From a virus (lineage: Duplodnaviria; Caudoviricetes): a stretch of 64,000 nucleotides of DNA. The stretch is from positions 32,001-96,000 of IMG/VR virus record IMGVR_UViG_3300049988_000245, one strand, 5' to 3'. The position numbers and the translations under genes were made by a program. The notes under the pieces were generated by a model that was given only the letters and a program-made list of their open reading frames with translations, ran no database searches and had not been told where the DNA came from. This document shows positions 3,199 through 59,530 of the stretch, in pieces. Each line of letters opens with the position of its first letter. The first letter of the stretch is position 1.

Positions 3199-4086
3199 AT
3201 GACTATGTCGGTCGTGCACGTCTATAATATTCCGCAAGTTGTAATCCTGTGCACCGGCACTGGAGCCAACACAATGAACTTTCCTGTTTCGCGAACGGAC
3301 ATCAAGCTGTCCAAAAACGTCGAGAATGTCATCGATATCTACGTTCGTGACATAGATCGAAAGCCTACTGCACCGGGCGGCATTCTGACGCTGCGAATCT
3401 TAGACCGCAAGAATCGTCGGGTTGTTGCATCCGCACCACTACTGCTGGTGGACCCGAAGAAGGTTCAGTACACCGCGACAATCTCTGGTCTCGACCTAAT
3501 CGAGGTCGATGTCGGGTACTACGACTATGTGGTCTCCTATACGGCCCCGAACGGATTGGAGAGCCTACTCTTCACAGACCGCGACCGGACCGAGATTTCC
3601 ACCGCCGAGGTCCGTCAGGGGCCGTTCCCCGATTACGTCGATGCGGTTCTCCTAACCAAGGACGGGATGCTCTCCCGCGATGTGACCACGCTGTATTCGG
3701 AGCCCCTGGATGGCGCCGCACGCGTGCGCAACGTCTCGGGAATCTCCTCGTTCGTCGTCCTGGGCAACCACTACACGGGCAAGATCACCGTGCAGGCGCT
3801 GCTCGATGCGATGCCGACCAACGATGACACGCAGTGGTTCGACGTAGCCTCGTACGAGTTCGACGATCTCACCGGGAATCAGGCGTTCACGTTCGAGGGG
3901 AACTTCGTCTGGGTCCGCTTCAAGCTGACCGACCGTTTGCCCTTGGTGATCCCGAAGGATGACGGCTGCTGCACCTCGTGCTTGGTCGGATGCCCCGAGG
4001 ATGACAAGCACAATTCACTGACCACCCCGATCGACTGGCCCGCCGAGACTCAGGTTGGTCTGCTTGAGATTCAGTTTAGAGCCTGA
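3199..4086 (+). CDS. putative virion/baseplate structural protein
   Basis: Beta-rich; CATAAATA late promoter at 3192-3199. Confidence 0.5.
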   Translation: MTMSVVHVYNIPQVVILCTGTGANTMNFPVSRTDIKLSKNVENVIDIYVRDIDRKPTAPGGILTLRILDRKNRRVVASAPLLLVDPKKVQYTATISGLDLIEVDVGYYDYVVSYTAPNGLESLLFTDRDRTEISTAEVRQGPFPDYVDAVLLTKDGMLSRDVTTLYSEPLDGAARVRNVSGISSFVVLGNHYTGKITVQALLDAMPTNDDTQWFDVASYEFDDLTGNQAFTFEGNFVWVRFKLTDRLPLVIPKDDGCCTSCLVGCPEDDKHNSLTTPIDWPAETQVGLLEIQFRA

Positions 4087-4088
4087 AG

Positions 4089-4547
4089 ATGCGATATTTC
4101 GACCTACTGGAAGGCCAGACAAAATTTCATTTGAGCGTCGCTCCGCAAGACCAGAAAATCTGCATTCGGGCTCTGCGCGTCGCCACAAAGATACTTGCTG
4201 AGCGAAACTTAGCTCACATTCTTGATTGCGAGATACGTTTTTCGCCAGATCGTTCTGAATACTGGAGGGAACGCGACATCATCATTATCGATTCGCGTCG
4301 TGATGCCGAACACATGGTCAACTCCTTGCTTCATGAAGCAGGGCATCGCTTGCAGATCACAAGTTTCTCTCTACTCAGAAATTTAAAGCTTATATTTGCT
4401 CACTTTAGAGGAAAGCTCGCACCAAACGATTACTCTCGCCAAAATCACTACGAGTTGTTCGCAGAACTATTCCGTCTCTGGTCGCTTAACGAGCTTTCTG
4501 ACGAAAAGTCTCAATGGATGACAGCGGTCATCTCTAAGTATACCTGA
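4089..4547 (+). CDS. HExxH metallopeptidase-like protein
   Basis: LLHEAGH and ELFAE motifs. Confidence 0.55.
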   Translation: MRYFDLLEGQTKFHLSVAPQDQKICIRALRVATKILAERNLAHILDCEIRFSPDRSEYWRERDIIIIDSRRDAEHMVNSLLHEAGHRLQITSFSLLRNLKLIFAHFRGKLAPNDYSRQNHYELFAELFRLWSLNELSDEKSQWMTAVISKYT

Positions 4548-4990
4548 TGCCACGCCGTTCCCGCCCAAAGCGCACTACCAAGACCGTATCCCACCGCGTC
4601 CCACCGAAACCCGCAAGCTGGTTCTGCGATCGTGGCACCTGTCGGTTCTGCGGCGAGCCGATCATCGAGAACGGTAAGGTCAACGGCCGGAAGCACTGGC
4701 ATACGCCATGCGCGCTCGTCTGGAATGTAATGAACAACCCCTCGGAGGCGCGCCTCCATGTGACGCGCCGTGAGAACTTTACCTGCGAGGAATGCGGCTA
4801 CCACAACGTGGACGGTCGATTCGAGGTCGATCACATCAAGCCTCTATTTGAGGCGAAGGGCGACCCCACCTATTGGCAATCACCCAACCTGATGCTGCTC
4901 TGCCTGGATTGCCACAAGATCAAAACCAAGGCCGACATGATCCGGTTTCGAGCGATGATCACCTGCGATGATCCGTTGACACCTGACTGA
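4547..4990 (+). CDS. HNH endonuclease
   Basis: CxxC pairs; EVDHIKPL...NLMLLCLDCHKIKT. Confidence 0.85.
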   Translation: MPRRSRPKRTTKTVSHRVPPKPASWFCDRGTCRFCGEPIIENGKVNGRKHWHTPCALVWNVMNNPSEARLHVTRRENFTCEECGYHNVDGRFEVDHIKPLFEAKGDPTYWQSPNLMLLCLDCHKIKTKADMIRFRAMITCDDPLTPD

Positions 4991-7144: not shown

Positions 7145-7789
7145 ATGTTATATTCTGTTTATAAGATCAAGAACACCCTGAACAATAAGGTATACATTGG
7201 AATCACAAGACGGCCAATGAAGATTCGGTGGAAGTGCCACGTCGGCGATGCCCGCCGGGGATCGAAATTTCATTTCCATCGTGCTATTAACAAGTACGGA
7301 TCGGATTTTTTTCAAGTCGAGATTCTTCTGTCTGGATTGACCAGCACTGAAGCTGGCGAAGCTGAAATACGTTTGATTCGAGAGCATGACTCTTACCGCA
7401 ATGGATACAACGAAACACAGGGCGGCGACATCGTTGAATGGTTCGAGAAGGCAACCCCCGAGGTTCGATCGGCCATAATTGAGCGCCGACGCAACGGGTT
7501 TCTTCGATATCTAGCTGCACGGTCTGAAGAAGAGATTCAAGCTCATCGAGATCGCACCGCCGAACAGTGGAGGAATCAGGACCCCATAGACCGAAATGCC
7601 ATGTCGAAGAAAATGGCATCTCGAAAGGCAAAGCGGTATCGTGTGACATCACCAGAAGGTCTCGTCACTGATGTACTGAATCTCAAGGCGTTTTGTCTGG
7701 AGATGAATCTTAATCAGAGTCATATGACTGGAGTCGCAAAGGGGCGTCTTCGATCATATCGTGGCTGGAAGGCTGAGTATCTTGATTGA
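7145..7789 (+). CDS. GIY-YIG homing endonuclease (Seg-like)
   Basis: SVYKIKNTLNNKVYIGIT, EAE, NGYNETQGG; visibly AT-richer than the flanks. Confidence 0.85.
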   Translation: MLYSVYKIKNTLNNKVYIGITRRPMKIRWKCHVGDARRGSKFHFHRAINKYGSDFFQVEILLSGLTSTEAGEAEIRLIREHDSYRNGYNETQGGDIVEWFEKATPEVRSAIIERRRNGFLRYLAARSEEEIQAHRDRTAEQWRNQDPIDRNAMSKKMASRKAKRYRVTSPEGLVTDVLNLKAFCLEMNLNQSHMTGVAKGRLRSYRGWKAEYLD

Positions 7790-13357: not shown

Positions 13358-13386
13358 AACCCGGCGCTTCGGCGTCGGGTTTTTTT
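13358..13386 (+). terminator. intrinsic terminator
   Basis: ACCCGGCGC-TTCG-GCGTCGGGT followed by a T-run. Confidence 0.85.
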
Positions 13387-13393
13387 ATAAATA
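13386..13393 (+). promoter_or_regulatory. T4-type late promoter TATAAATA
   Basis: Exact T4 late consensus ahead of a virion gene pair. Confidence 0.7.
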
Positions 13394-13418: not shown

Positions 13419-13574
13419 ATGATTATTCACGATCTATTTGAGCTTGCATCACCAAAGCCCAAGCATGTTTGGTCCAAACGCGGGAAAGCGGTTGAGAAGC
13501 GTGTCGAGCGCGAGCCGGATACGCGCATCACGGGTCGTACTCAGCTTGCTGTGAAGGACAATAAGAATGGCTGA
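13419..13574 (+). CDS. 51 aa basic small protein (not in the track)
   Basis: MIIHDLFELASPKPKHVW...; follows the late promoter and overlaps the next start. Confidence 0.5.
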   Translation: MIIHDLFELASPKPKHVWSKRGKAVEKRVEREPDTRITGRTQLAVKDNKNG

Positions 13575-14430
13575 TTCTGACGCAATCAACAAGGCCGCCA
13601 AGCTGCTCGGCATCGACCGGGATGAGGTCACCAAGCGGATGGAGAAGATGCCCGTCAACGCGGTGATCGACGCACTCGATGCGGTTGCATCCGGTGACGA
13701 AGAGCGCGTTCGCGAACTCCTCGGGAATGATGTGGATGAGGACGGCGGTCTGGAATCTCCTGAGAAGAACGTCGAGGATGACGACGAGTTCGAGATCAAC
13801 CCTCTCTTCATGAAGCGGAACAACGCGAAGAAGAAGCAGTCCGAAAAGGAGGTTGAGGAGGAAGCCTTCTCCCCCAACATCGGCGACGAGGTCCGTGTGA
13901 ACGGAGAAGAGGGAATCGTTAAGGTCGTTCATGGCCCGAATGATACGACCGGCGTGATGATCGACGGTCAGACTACCATGGTTAAGAAAGCACAGGTGAA
14001 GCGCGTGAAGACTCAGGAAAGTGTTATTGAAGAAGGTCTAATGGGAATGACCCCGATGATCGACCTGCGTCGCATGCAGGAACTCGCCGGTATGACCCCA
14101 GGGGCGTCGCCGCTCTCCCCAGGTCGTGTGGACTTGGCTGGTTCCTCGGATGCCGTGGAAGGCCCTCCAGCGCCCGTGGACGCCGTCGAGGTGTCTGTGG
14201 AGCCCGCACCAGCACCGATTCCACCGATGCCCGCCCCTGTGGCTCCTACGGCGGCTCCTGAGGCGAATCTGACCGCTGTTAGCATCGACGGCGTCATGTC
14301 GTCGTTCGATCAGATCGAGGCGGCTCTTCCGAACATCGCTCTGGGCGACGCCAAGACGGTCCGTGAGCGCATCAATGCGATCATGGCCCTGCTCAACGAA
14401 GGTCTTGACGGTCGCAAGCGCAAAATCTAA
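13567..14430 (+). CDS. acidic head scaffold/core-like protein
   Basis: Very acidic with low-complexity segments; late cluster. Confidence 0.45.
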   Translation: MADSDAINKAAKLLGIDRDEVTKRMEKMPVNAVIDALDAVASGDEERVRELLGNDVDEDGGLESPEKNVEDDDEFEINPLFMKRNNAKKKQSEKEVEEEAFSPNIGDEVRVNGEEGIVKVVHGPNDTTGVMIDGQTTMVKKAQVKRVKTQESVIEEGLMGMTPMIDLRRMQELAGMTPGASPLSPGRVDLAGSSDAVEGPPAPVDAVEVSVEPAPAPIPPMPAPVAPTAAPEANLTAVSIDGVMSSFDQIEAALPNIALGDAKTVRERINAIMALLNEGLDGRKRKI

Positions 14431-14704
14431 ACCCCCGCTGGGCTCCGGCCACTGTGCAAAAGCATACGCTCGCCCTGAATTGACAGGGGGTCCCCGGTGA
14501 GTAGCTACCTCGAAACCGGGATGGGAGTTTTTCAATTTGACTGTTCCGAATCTACGGAATAGTCTGACTAGGTCACCCAGGCAGGCACTGGATTCGTCCA
14601 TCCTCCACCAGTGAGCTTACACAACGGTCGCTCGGTGAGTTGCAACCTCGAAGCCGAGATGTGGGTATTTGTGAGGGGGTTTGGCCGCAAGGCTGGACCC
14701 CCTT
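14431..14704 (+). ncRNA. candidate structured ncRNA with twin palindromic-loop hairpins
   Basis: Two covarying copies of CGGTGAG-palindrome-CCTCGAA-RCCG, UUCG and GCAA tetraloops; G-U pairs favour the + strand. Confidence 0.55.
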
Positions 14705-14709
14705 AAAGT

Positions 14710-15042
14710 TTACAGGCACACCCTGAGCATGACGAAGTCGCGCTGGCAGTCTTCGACGGAGCCGCCGAACGAGGTCACGTCGAATCCCTCACCGCTGAAG
14801 AGTCCCCGGACGCCCCAGGTGGACGTGTAGAGGCGTTGGGTCCAGTGGCGGCGCAGATCGGCGATCACCCATATTCCCCCAGCATAAGCCTTCCAGCGAC
14901 GAGCCGAATACTTGCTCTTTTCGTAGTCCGAATGAGCCTTGGGAATCGCGTTCATCAGCCCGGTGAAATCGAGTGCCGCGATCTCAGGCGGCGGATCGAT
15001 GTACTTGAGAGCGTACGAGGGTTTTGGTCTGGTCTCTGACAT
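14710..15042 (-). CDS. hypothetical protein
   Basis: 110 aa ORF ending at the RNA candidate. Confidence 0.5.
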   Translation of the reverse strand: MSETRPKPSYALKYIDPPPEIAALDFTGLMNAIPKAHSDYEKSKYSARRWKAYAGGIWVIADLRRHWTQRLYTSTWGVRGLFSGEGFDVTSFGGSVEDCQRDFVMLRVCL

Positions 15043-15071
15043 GCCTCATTATAAGGCATGTCGTGAGGAAA

Positions 15072-15683
15072 TCAAACCTTACGCTTGGTGACGAAGAAGC
15101 GGCTTTCCTCGAACTCGATCTCATATCCCCAGGTCCCGAGGCTCTGGACCCATTCCTGAACGTTGCCACCGCCGAATACCTGGGCGTCGCCATCGTCAGT
15201 GATGTATCCGACCGTGAATCCCTTATGGACGGCCTCGGACATCCGCGCGATCCAGTAGGCTTTTCCCGCCTGGGTATGAGTCTTATCCGAGAGGATCGTA
15301 TCGTAATTCTGAATCATCGGTCCCCAGAACATCTTCTGGGCGATATCTTTAACCGGGCAATCGGGTGACTTCCACAGCATGTAGGTTGAACAGCACCGAC
15401 CAAGACCATCGAGCTTGTAAATTTCGTACTGCGCGGTATAGCAGACCTTCTTGTTGACGATATCCAACAGGAAGAGTTCGCCCTCATGCTCCTCAACAAT
15501 GTTGCCGATCACATAGTGATCATTCTCCACCAGGGGATTGTATTGGCTTCGAATCAAGCGCTGATACTCTAACGTGTTCACCTCCGGGTGATTCACGTTG
15601 ACATCATCGGCCTGAGACTGTGGGACGAGTGCTGGCATCTCCGTAAGCGGGACGACAGCTTCCATAAGATCGCGCATATTCAT
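15072..15683 (-). CDS. putative packaged protein, GNAT-like motif
   Basis: Leader MNMRDLMEA; SDKTHTQAGKAYW; TAAATA on - near 15689. Confidence 0.45.
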   Translation of the reverse strand: MNMRDLMEAVVPLTEMPALVPQSQADDVNVNHPEVNTLEYQRLIRSQYNPLVENDHYVIGNIVEEHEGELFLLDIVNKKVCYTAQYEIYKLDGLGRCCSTYMLWKSPDCPVKDIAQKMFWGPMIQNYDTILSDKTHTQAGKAYWIARMSEAVHKGFTVGYITDDGDAQVFGGGNVQEWVQSLGTWGYEIEFEESRFFVTKRKV

Positions 15684-17671: not shown

Positions 17672-17679
17672 TATAAATA
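17672..17679 (+). promoter_or_regulatory. T4-type late promoter TATAAATA
   Basis: Directly upstream of the fibre gene. Confidence 0.7.
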
Positions 17680-27597: not shown

Positions 27598-27672
27598 TGG
27601 CGTCCCCTCAGGGATTCGAACCCTGGATCGCGGAGTTAGAAGCCGCTGCCTTAACCGCTTGGCTAAGGGGAC
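27598..27672 (-). tRNA. tRNA with CUA anticodon (amber suppressor-like), Gln-type D-arm, encoded CCA
   Basis: GUCCCCU/AGGGGAC acceptor, G73, D-arm GCC-AAGCGGUUAA-GGC, anticodon arm GCGGC-UUCUAAC-UCCGC, T-arm CAGGG-UUCGAAU-CCCUG. Confidence 0.85.
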
Positions 27673-27678
27673 ATACGG

Positions 27679-27752
27679 TGTCTCTGGTCGGGCTCGAACC
27701 GACGACCAATGGAGTTAGAAGCCACCGCTCTGACCAACTGAGCTACAGAGAC
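27679..27752 (-). tRNA. second tRNA with CUA anticodon (amber suppressor-like)
   Basis: GUCUCUG/CAGAGAC acceptor, A73, D-stem GCUC/GAGC, anticodon arm GUGGC-UUCUAAC-UCCAU, T-arm GUCGG-UUCGAGC-CCGAC; CCA not fully encoded. Confidence 0.85.
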
Positions 27753-58831: not shown

Positions 58832-59162
58832 TAAAATCGTCGGACGATTCCTCGCGTCCGACAACATGCCGGAGCTTGTCCCAAATCTCCTCGGTGAGGA
58901 CCATCGTCGTGCCATCGACGCGGTCGTAGAGTTCCGGGGCGATCTCGCAGAAAATCTCGACGAGAGGATTCCCGCGCATCCGGTCGATGGGGAGAAATCG
59001 ATTCTTCACCGCCCGGAACAGCATCTCGCCGGGATCGCGCTTGATTATCACGTGCGCGCGGAACGATATCGTCGTGCGAATCCGGTCTGCGCCGACGATT
59101 TGTCGGCCCTGACGATTCGGGATCAGCGCGATGATCTGAGGGGGCATGAATCCATGGTCCAA
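58773..59162 (-). CDS. hypothetical protein
   Basis: ORF downstream of the tmRNA. Confidence 0.45.
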   Translation of the reverse strand: MDHGFMPPQIIALIPNRQGRQIVGADRIRTTISFRAHVIIKRDPGEMLFRAVKNRFLPIDRMRGNPLVEIFCEIAPELYDRVDGTTMVLTEEIWDKLRHVVGREESSDDFIRSQQSARAGAPLKLTYPY

Positions 59163-59169
59163 ACATGGG

Positions 59170-59497
59170 TCCGGGGGCCGAAGCCCCCGGTTCTGTTTCT
59201 ACGGTTACCCTACCGCACGAAGATCACGCCGCGAGGCGGACTTCCATGGCAACGTTGTCGTTGACAGATATGTGTTTGAACAGTGCACGCAAACAGTTTC
59301 CTGCGTACGCAAGCCGTGTCTCAGCTTATGTCGCCTCGTGCTCCCCGAAGGAAGTCGATCTCTCTTGCCCCTTCACGCGCAATCGATCCCAAGTCGCCCC
59401 CATCAGGAGAACACTTCATGAAAGTGTGCTCATGGTGGAGGCGTGCGGATTCGAACCGCAGTGTTGCCGCGCTATCTCACAAGGTCTTCAACAGTGG
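59170..59497 (-). ncRNA. ssrA: two-piece (circularly permuted) tmRNA
   Basis: Acceptor piece ends UGCGG-UUCGAAU-CCGCA-CGCCUCC-A-CCA (59433); hairpin IVS 59402-59432; coding piece starts GGGGGCG (59401) with G3-U70; tag VNDNVAMEVRLAA* at 59265-59224. Confidence 0.92.
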
Positions 59498-59499
59498 GG

Positions 59500-59530
59500 T
59501 ATTTATAGCTGAGCGTCGGTGGAGTGTCAA
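59500..59530 (-). promoter_or_regulatory. tmRNA promoter (overlapping sigma70 and T4-late)
   Basis: TTGACA-N17-TATAAATA. Confidence 0.7.

Follow-up and report, generated by a model that had tools for sequence, protein, structure and literature searches.

Between two convergent genes of a jumbo phage found in leaf and silage metagenomes lies a non-coding gap of 279 nt, which holds two copies of one bulged hairpin. What kind of element occupies this gap, and what might its hairpins do? A first, sequence-only reading proposed a single structured RNA of ~270 nt that multimerises through self-complementary loops, or else a pair of tandem protein-binding sites. Palindromic loops mediate kissing dimerisation, the retroviral DIS being an example. 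The stretch of DNA considered here, which we call the window, has a length of 64,000 nucleotides and corresponds to bases 32001-96000 of an IMG/VR virus record of 265,895 bp in total; unless a relative is named, positions are those of the window.

Genomic context of the element

The gap is preceded by a gene for a 287-aa protein (13567-14430, + strand), and wherever we found the element it lies directly 3' of an orthologue of this gene. On its other side is a convergent gene for a 110-aa protein (14710-15042, - strand), whose stop codon is 6 nt from the terminator hairpin of the element. A T4-type late promoter, TATAAATA (13386-13393, + strand), stands before the 287-aa gene, just past a canonical intrinsic terminator (13361-13386, + strand) with a GC stem, a UUCG loop and seven U, and we consider the 287-aa gene a late gene because of this promoter. 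The terminator is an example of the ordinary terminator style of this phage. The TATAAATA octamer occurs six times in the window, at 13386, 17672, 23096(-), 23579(-), 32413 and 59500(-), versus 0.35 expected, and these copies probably mark T4-like late promoters. The one at 17672 is directly 5' of a gene for a 1379-aa fibre protein with Ig repeats (17692). Directly upstream of the 110-aa gene there is a strong sigma70-like promoter, TTGATT-N16-TATAAT (15075-15048, - strand; 10/12 match), so that T4-late and host-type promoters oppose each other across the element.

The element had been described as following a head/scaffold cluster. This placement was not borne out: the nearest upstream genes recognisable with HMMs encode a primase and a DnaB-type helicase, 4-6 kb away, and neither Pfam nor PHROGs gave a match for the four adjacent upstream ORFs (the 287-aa gene included) or for the 110-aa gene. 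The HMM searches revealed no packaging genes near the element, and no link to a capsid gene was found that would support the suggested connection to capsid assembly. Just upstream of the primase and helicase genes is a free-standing homing endonuclease gene of the GIY-YIG/HNH type (7145-7789, + strand; phrog_314, E 1.6e-28).

Elsewhere in the window, a permuted tmRNA of the two-piece type is encoded at 59133-59526 (- strand; Rfam RF04321, 77 bits), with the tag peptide VNDNVAMEVRLAA, and the TATAAATA copy at 59500-59507 (- strand) is located at its upstream end. The permuted tmRNA and its NDN tag would fit an alphaproteobacterial host. Two tandem tRNA genes (27598-27752, - strand) both have a CUA (amber-reading) anticodon; ARAGORN assigns them to tRNA-Pyl and Rfam to tRNA, and the neighbouring long ORFs are normal in code 11.

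Architecture of the element

The two modules have the sequences first described for them. Module 1 (P4; 14493-14520, + strand) reads CCCGGT-GAG-TAGCTA-C-CTC-GAA-ACCGGG, and module 2 (P4'; 14631-14658, + strand) reads CTCGGT-GAG-TTGCAA-C-CTC-GAA-GCCGAG. Each consists of a 6-bp lower stem, a GAA bulge on the 3' side, a 3-bp GAG/CUC upper stem and a 7-nt loop, which is UAGCUAC with the tip palindrome GUAGCUAC in module 1 and UUGCAAC with the tip palindrome GUUGCAAC in module 2. The modules lie within a 38-nt direct repeat whose copies are 82% identical and 138 nt apart, and the pattern GGTGAG-N7-CTCGAA-N-CC has exactly two occurrences in the 266-kb record, each of them on the + strand, and none in a reversed control.

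Module 1 belongs to domain 1, a four-helix junction (14441-14529, + strand) for which the MFE and centroid structures are the same and which has a consensus fold and covariation over five phages. Its helices are P1 (14441-14446/14524-14529), P2 (14447-14470), P3 (14473-14488) and P4. A U-rich tail, UUUUUCAAUUU (14528-14538, + strand), comes after P1, and an inter-domain hairpin, H (14539-14564, + strand), with 10 bp and a 6-nt loop, follows. Hairpin H is overlapped by a promoter-like pair (14537-14565, + strand) composed of TTGACT (14537-14542), a 17-nt spacer and TAGTCT (14560-14565). Domain 2 (14575-14666, + strand) is a paralogue of domain 1, recognised by the model of the latter and 88-91% identical in three phages; it is formed by P1' (14575-14579/14662-14666), P2' (14580-14606), whose UUCG loop is at 14593-14596 (+ strand), P3' (14607-14628) and P4'. 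A GCAA-capped, GC-rich hairpin of 13 bp with the tail UUAAAGUUU (14674-14711, stem 14674-14703, + strand) ends the element and is a likely + strand terminator. The 10-bp hairpin, the UUCG loop and the GCAA-capped stem are all at the positions that the sequence-only reading had given.

Homologues and distribution

Relatives were collected by a protein search with the 287-aa gene, which returned orthologues with 90, 79, 68, 59 and lower percentages of identity, and their contigs were inspected. The element follows the orthologous gene with two modules in each of L006 (90%) and L007 (79%), and with one module in each of L143 (68%) and L008 (59%). From L009 (59%) downwards, an ordinary terminator or a different gene occupies the site, and in L010 and L011 it is a plain hairpin-plus-U terminator. 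The single domain of L143 fills the whole gap and adjoins the convergent gene directly; in L008, a stretch of ~600 bp downstream of the single domain (3990-4579 of that contig) has no called gene. All differences of a near-identical strain variant from silage in the gap are located in the 5' part, at loops or unpaired positions; in the P2 loop, for instance, AAAA is replaced by GAAA.

Beyond these contigs, a blastn search of 50,697 phage records gave no match to the element, and scans with the module pattern of IMG/VR, supplemented by a model check, and of 185,579 prokaryote genomes returned chance matches in coding DNA only. The same scan of JGI metagenomes gave at least 120 chance matches, with three palindromic loops among the matches listed versus ~2 expected. 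The domain model found just two copies in the 266-kb record and none in the 607-kb distant relative G001, and protein searches with both downstream genes led to no further contigs. With so few homologues and pattern scans that yield chance matches only, the family is narrow as far as the data reach.

The comparison with Rfam that the first reading had recommended left the element without a matching covariance model. At gathering scores, the window and four homologous loci contain only the tmRNA and the two tRNAs, which lie elsewhere; when the region 13800-15400 was compared with Rfam 15, whose families include pRNA, manA, hammerhead, twister-sister, hairpin and 6S, at E values up to 10, the only hit within the element was BjrC68, a terminator-like match at the last hairpin with 15.7 bits versus a gathering score of 39. 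Judging from these sequence comparisons, we regard the element as a previously undescribed, conserved family of phage RNA.

Fold, strand and duplication

The single-sequence MFE structures of the 5' part of the window and of L006, L007, L008 and L143 have the same four-helix layout, in which P1 is the closing helix around the invariant P4 and the two hairpins that vary, P2 and P3. RNAalifold recovers P1, P3 and P4 in the consensus. A covariance model made from the five domain-1 sequences matches the 3' part of the window, L006 and L007 from end to end, with 38.7-44.6 bits and E values of 1e-8 to 1e-10, the closing helix P1' included. Because the match extends over the full length of domain 2, the element is considered a tandem duplication of one ~90-nt domain.

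Over the eight domain copies, 96.1% of the cells of 19 pairs are paired, versus 30-52% when the pairing partners are slid, and compensatory changes are seen in 8 of the 19; as this alignment was fitted to the model, its pair counts lean towards the structure. For the full-length element in three phages, 96.6% of the cells of 80 pairs are paired (35-47% slid), with compensatory changes in nine pairs, some of them in hairpin H (GTTCCG/CGGAAT to ACGCGG/CCGCGT) and in the terminal hairpin. In hairpin H, three pairs are altered on both sides and one changes from G·U to A-U, and the GCAA hairpin has three G·U pairs besides its compensatory changes. Every helix of the domain shows compensatory or G·U changes. 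In this way, covariation in the syntenic relatives bears out the proposal of a structured non-coding RNA. The proposed long-range pair of CTGGG with CCCAG fares differently: both strings are present, but the pairing is not conserved, since L007 has no 5' partner.

The + strand had been favoured from the G-U pairs, and this view agrees with our results: ~9 G·U pairs and several changes from G-C to G·U fit only this strand, and the fold z-score against shuffled sequences is -2.74 for it and -1.26 for the - strand. The z-scores of single domains are modest (-0.8 to -3.0), so the case for structure rests on comparison and not on energy; in the MFE structure of domain 2 of the window taken by itself, module 2 is unformed. 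Indels of 1 nt shift the reading frame among the homologues, and therefore there is no conserved ORF; one frame of the - strand is open in L006 despite these indels.

The same evidence bears on the possibility that the functional form is double-stranded DNA, with the GTWGCWAC palindromes or the entire inverted repeats being operator, origin or promoter sites of a dimeric DNA-binding protein. As DNA, the tips are indeed palindromes of 8 bp; between the modules there is a promoter-like TTGAC/TAGTCT pair whose spacer is palindromic, and the primase and helicase genes are 4-6 kb upstream. A DNA site of this kind would nevertheless leave unexplained why the arms lack symmetry, given their conserved bulge of 3 nt and additional C, why stems are maintained through G·U pairs that are A·C on the opposite strand, why compensatory changes keep the pairing and not the sequence, and why the modules sit inside a larger junction that covaries as well and is closed by P1. 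We consider it very improbable.

Probable transcription units

We infer that the late transcript of the 287-aa gene must run into domain 1. In the ancestral state, a late gene driven by TATAAATA ends in a single domain, whose role would have been that of a 3'-terminal mRNA structure, because the single domain of L143 abuts the convergent gene. By duplication, this 3'UTR element has given rise to a likely stand-alone sRNA.

Of the two TTGAC boxes that had been pointed out as possible promoter or origin parts, the one at 14480 (TTGACA) was rejected as a promoter: it is the variable P3 loop, and it reads TTAACA in the silage strain variant and TCAACA in L007. The other, at 14537, is conserved together with TAGTCT at 14560. 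The arrangement TTGACT-N17-TAGTCT is kept in three phages, with a spacer that is constant in length and 29% identical. TAGTCT agrees with the -10 consensus at 3/6 positions only, the TTGAC/TAGTCT pattern is not enriched in the window, and the conserved GAC and GTC double as the base of hairpin H. P1' starts ~4 nt past the predicted start site. The terminal hairpin (14674-14703) is GC-rich and covarying, and its tail UUAAAGUUU fails the U-tract rule of the terminator scan. Taken together, the conserved promoter-like pair, the position of P1' and the covarying terminal hairpin point to domain 2 probably being transcribed on its own as well, as an sRNA of ~135 nt. As a consequence, the idea of one ~270-nt RNA stands as regards the structured RNA itself, and its single transcript may instead be a 3'UTR plus this sRNA.

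Another account would see in the element no more than a compound 3' end, with the branched structure serving the late mRNA as terminator and as a barrier to exonucleases; the element would have no partner in trans, and domain 2 would be a redundant duplicate. The gap does sit between convergent genes, in L143 one domain occupies all of it, and L010 and L011 have a hairpin-plus-U terminator at the same place. A U-rich tail comes after P1 in most copies: L006, L007 and L008 have one resembling UUUUUCAAUUU after the domain, and domain 2 has a weaker version, whereas the tail of L143 is not U-rich. In domain 1, P1 is followed by UUUUU, but P1 closes a branched structure. Stability, however, needs structure and not 28 invariant nucleotides, simple canonical terminators are used elsewhere by this phage (13361-13386), and domain 2 is conserved above synonymous sites. 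We therefore hold a mere 3' end to be improbable.

Conservation profile

The unevenness of conservation along the element can be seen when L006 and L007 are compared with the window (identities in this order). In the flanking genes, identity at third codon positions is 64-71%. The interior of hairpin H is 29% and 29% identical, the -35 region around TTGAC (14537) 82% and 91%, and the -10 TAGTCT (14560-14565) 100% and 100%. Module 1 reaches 100% and 96%, module 2 100% and 100%, and domain 2 overall 91% and 88%, which is above synonymous sites.

Within P4, the eight copies confirm what two copies had suggested, namely that the outer stem covaries (C-G to U-A, G-C to A-U and U-A to U·G) under a conserved GAA bulge. 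None of the eight copies departs from the others in the upper stem, the GAA bulge or five of the loop positions. The loops UAGCUA and UUGCAA are palindromic in every copy, in keeping with the first description of two different 6-nt palindromes, and one compensatory double change separates the two variants. The whole tip is an 8-nt palindrome. The outgroups L008 and L143 have GUUGCAAC, as does domain 2; in the two-domain phages, domain 1 has GUAGCUAC. Positions 2 and 5 of the domain 1 loop thus changed jointly after the duplication, from UUGCAA to UAGCUA; cross-complementarity of UAGCUA with UUGCAA went down to 4/6, and self-complementarity remained intact. Because there are five lineages and two loop variants only, this palindrome-preserving change counts as a single event.

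Proposed self-pairing of the P4 tips and possible protein binding

The loop pattern is what would be expected of homotypic kissing sites that have become orthogonal. Natural RNA homo-oligomers that form through kissing loops or palindromic pairing have been described, and some are phage-associated, as is the manA motif (PMC12990946; PMC12286853; bioRxiv 10.64898/2026.07.01.735769). According to nearest-neighbour energies, the self-duplex has -5.1 kcal/mol for UAGCUA and -4.5 kcal/mol for UUGCAA, and the cross-duplex -2.0 kcal/mol; the predicted gain upon dimer formation is -12 to -13 kcal/mol for module homodimers and 0 for the heterodimer. AU-rich 6-bp kisses of this type are weaker than the retroviral type, GCGCGC, whose self-duplex has -10.9 kcal/mol. 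Inspection of the alignment found no conserved intramolecular partner for the P4 loops, and candidates in P2, P3 and P3' were rejected since they are not conserved.

From these observations, we propose the following explanation. The + strand encodes a structured RNA whose unit is a ~90-nt four-helix junction, and ancestrally one such unit was the 3'-terminal part of a late mRNA. The lineage of the window has this unit duplicated in tandem, and the second copy would have gained a sigma70-like promoter and a strong terminator. The invariant P4 tip would be the working part and would pair with the identical tip on another molecule by homotypic loop-loop kissing; the two paralogous loops being mutually orthogonal, the RNAs would be joined into dimers or chains. 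To the explanation as a whole, that is, a duplicated junction RNA with an sRNA from its second copy and homotypic kissing by P4, we give a probability of about 0.4. Self-pairing of the P4 tips is our leading mechanism; we hold it tentatively because the loop change is a single event, the AU-rich kisses are weak and the invariance resembles that of a protein site.

It is this invariance that makes a protein-site reading a close rival. In that alternative, the P4 hairpins would be tandem binding sites of a phage protein, such as the 287-aa protein, or of a host protein, which would control the stability, translation or termination of the late mRNA, and the palindromy would be incidental. An invariant loop or bulge above a covarying stem is the classic form of a protein-recognised hairpin, as in lambda boxB and the MS2 operator, and P4 has this form, with a freely covarying lower stem below an invariant upper stem, GAA bulge and loop. 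Kissing needs none of the invariant bulge, upper stem and five loop positions, which are typical of protein-recognised hairpins. The strict linkage to the 287-aa gene in five lineages also speaks for a protein, and so does the protein itself, with its conserved small beta-barrel and basic C-terminal tail. It is conserved in at least 10 phage lineages, and an AlphaFold model (pLDDT 60) consists of an N-terminal helical bundle, an acidic linker, the small beta-barrel (residues 103-145), a Pro/Ala linker and a basic C-terminal helical hairpin; compared with viral folds, this model gave no informative match. On the other hand, a single sequence-specific protein would not predict loops that differ at positions 2 and 5 and yet remain self-complementary, and no RNA-binding family or fold was identified in any neighbour of the element. 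We consider protein binding about as likely as self-pairing, or somewhat less so.

Comparison with known systems

If P4 self-pairing is correct, the closest functional parallel to the element is a DIS-type kissing hairpin, here placed on a junction scaffold. Like the DIS of HIV-1, it has a 6-nt self-complementary sequence in an apical loop, which allows a homotypic kiss and an extended duplex. Unlike the 9-nt DIS loop, the phage loop has 7 nt and no flanking purines; its palindromes are AU-rich and weaker, and there are two orthogonal sites per locus. Moreover, the DIS lies in a genomic RNA and the element in a phage with a DNA genome, where dimerisation is a prediction.

There is a looser resemblance to phi29 pRNA and to the self-associating RNAs manA, ROOL and GOLLD. 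The pRNA (RF00044) is also a phage-encoded structured RNA of similar size, and it multimerises by loop-loop pairing; in contrast to our element, it uses two different complementary loops in a heterotypic ring, and the element has neither an Rfam match nor nearby packaging genes. To our knowledge, pRNA is known only in small phi29-like phages. The manA (RF01745), ROOL, GOLLD, OLE and HYER RNAs are conserved non-coding RNAs, several of them phage-associated, whose conserved loops or palindromes give rise to RNA-only oligomers (PMC12286853, PMC12990946, bioRxiv 10.64898/2026.07.01.735769). Their interfaces are mostly heterotypic kissing loops in larger folds, whereas in our element, which has no Rfam match, assembly is hypothetical. 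The element stands outside the DIS, pRNA and manA/ROOL/GOLLD families, as their models have no match in it and its architecture differs.

With 3'UTR-derived or terminator-ended sRNAs, and with rnaC and rnaD of T4, the element shares its place at an mRNA end, a possible internal promoter, a terminal hairpin and the setting in a T4-like phage. The function of rnaC and rnaD, which are stable small RNAs of T4, is unknown. Unlike bacterial sRNAs and these T4 RNAs, the element has no evident single-stranded seed, and its conserved CCUCC is buried in P2'; an anti-Shine-Dalgarno role of CCAUCCUCC was discarded for the same pairing within P2'. It also differs from rnaC, rnaD and linear sRNAs in being a four-way junction located outside the tRNA cluster. 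The boxB/N site of lambda and the MS2 and PP7 operators are similar in their invariant loop and bulge over a covarying stem, with the site present twice in the element; they differ in that the element has palindromic loops that vary between copies by a compensatory pair, and no cognate protein was identified.

Several other classes were considered and rejected. For a tRNA or cloverleaf, ARAGORN found nothing in the region of the element, a 28-nt bulged hairpin stands at the T-arm position and the P3 loop has 6 nt. As for a hammerhead, module 1 has GAG..CUC-GAA-A beside a U-A pair, but it possesses neither CUGANGA nor stem I nor an H17 site, module 2 reads GAAG and there is no Rfam match. A kink-turn was dismissed because the GAA bulge is followed by Watson-Crick A-U and C-G pairs, with no GA/AG tandem in either orientation. 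Domain 5 of group II introns was considered as a class and dropped, CRISPR-repeat mimics and type III antitoxin repeats have the wrong spacing and repeat structure, and a retron would require a reverse transcriptase gene, which is absent nearby.

Implications

Few structured RNAs of giant phages have been described, and loop-mediated RNA oligomerisation in nature has been recognised only recently. The element is small, with ~90 nt per domain and a clear comparative fold. Given two paralogues with self-complementary loops that have diverged in a compensatory manner, self-pairing is directly testable with short transcripts and loop swaps. We regard as doubtful the fuller picture of a self-assembling phage RNA with one homotypic loop per four-way junction, the loops orthogonal after duplication, whose two-domain transcripts, late in infection, would be linked head-to-head and tail-to-tail and so form dimers or open chains; if true, this jumbo phage would possess a natural RNA-only scaffold that represents a new family. 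Should the P4 hairpins instead be protein sites, they would provide a new RNA-protein recognition pair in a phage late operon. Under either reading, the element would add a new family to RNA catalogues.
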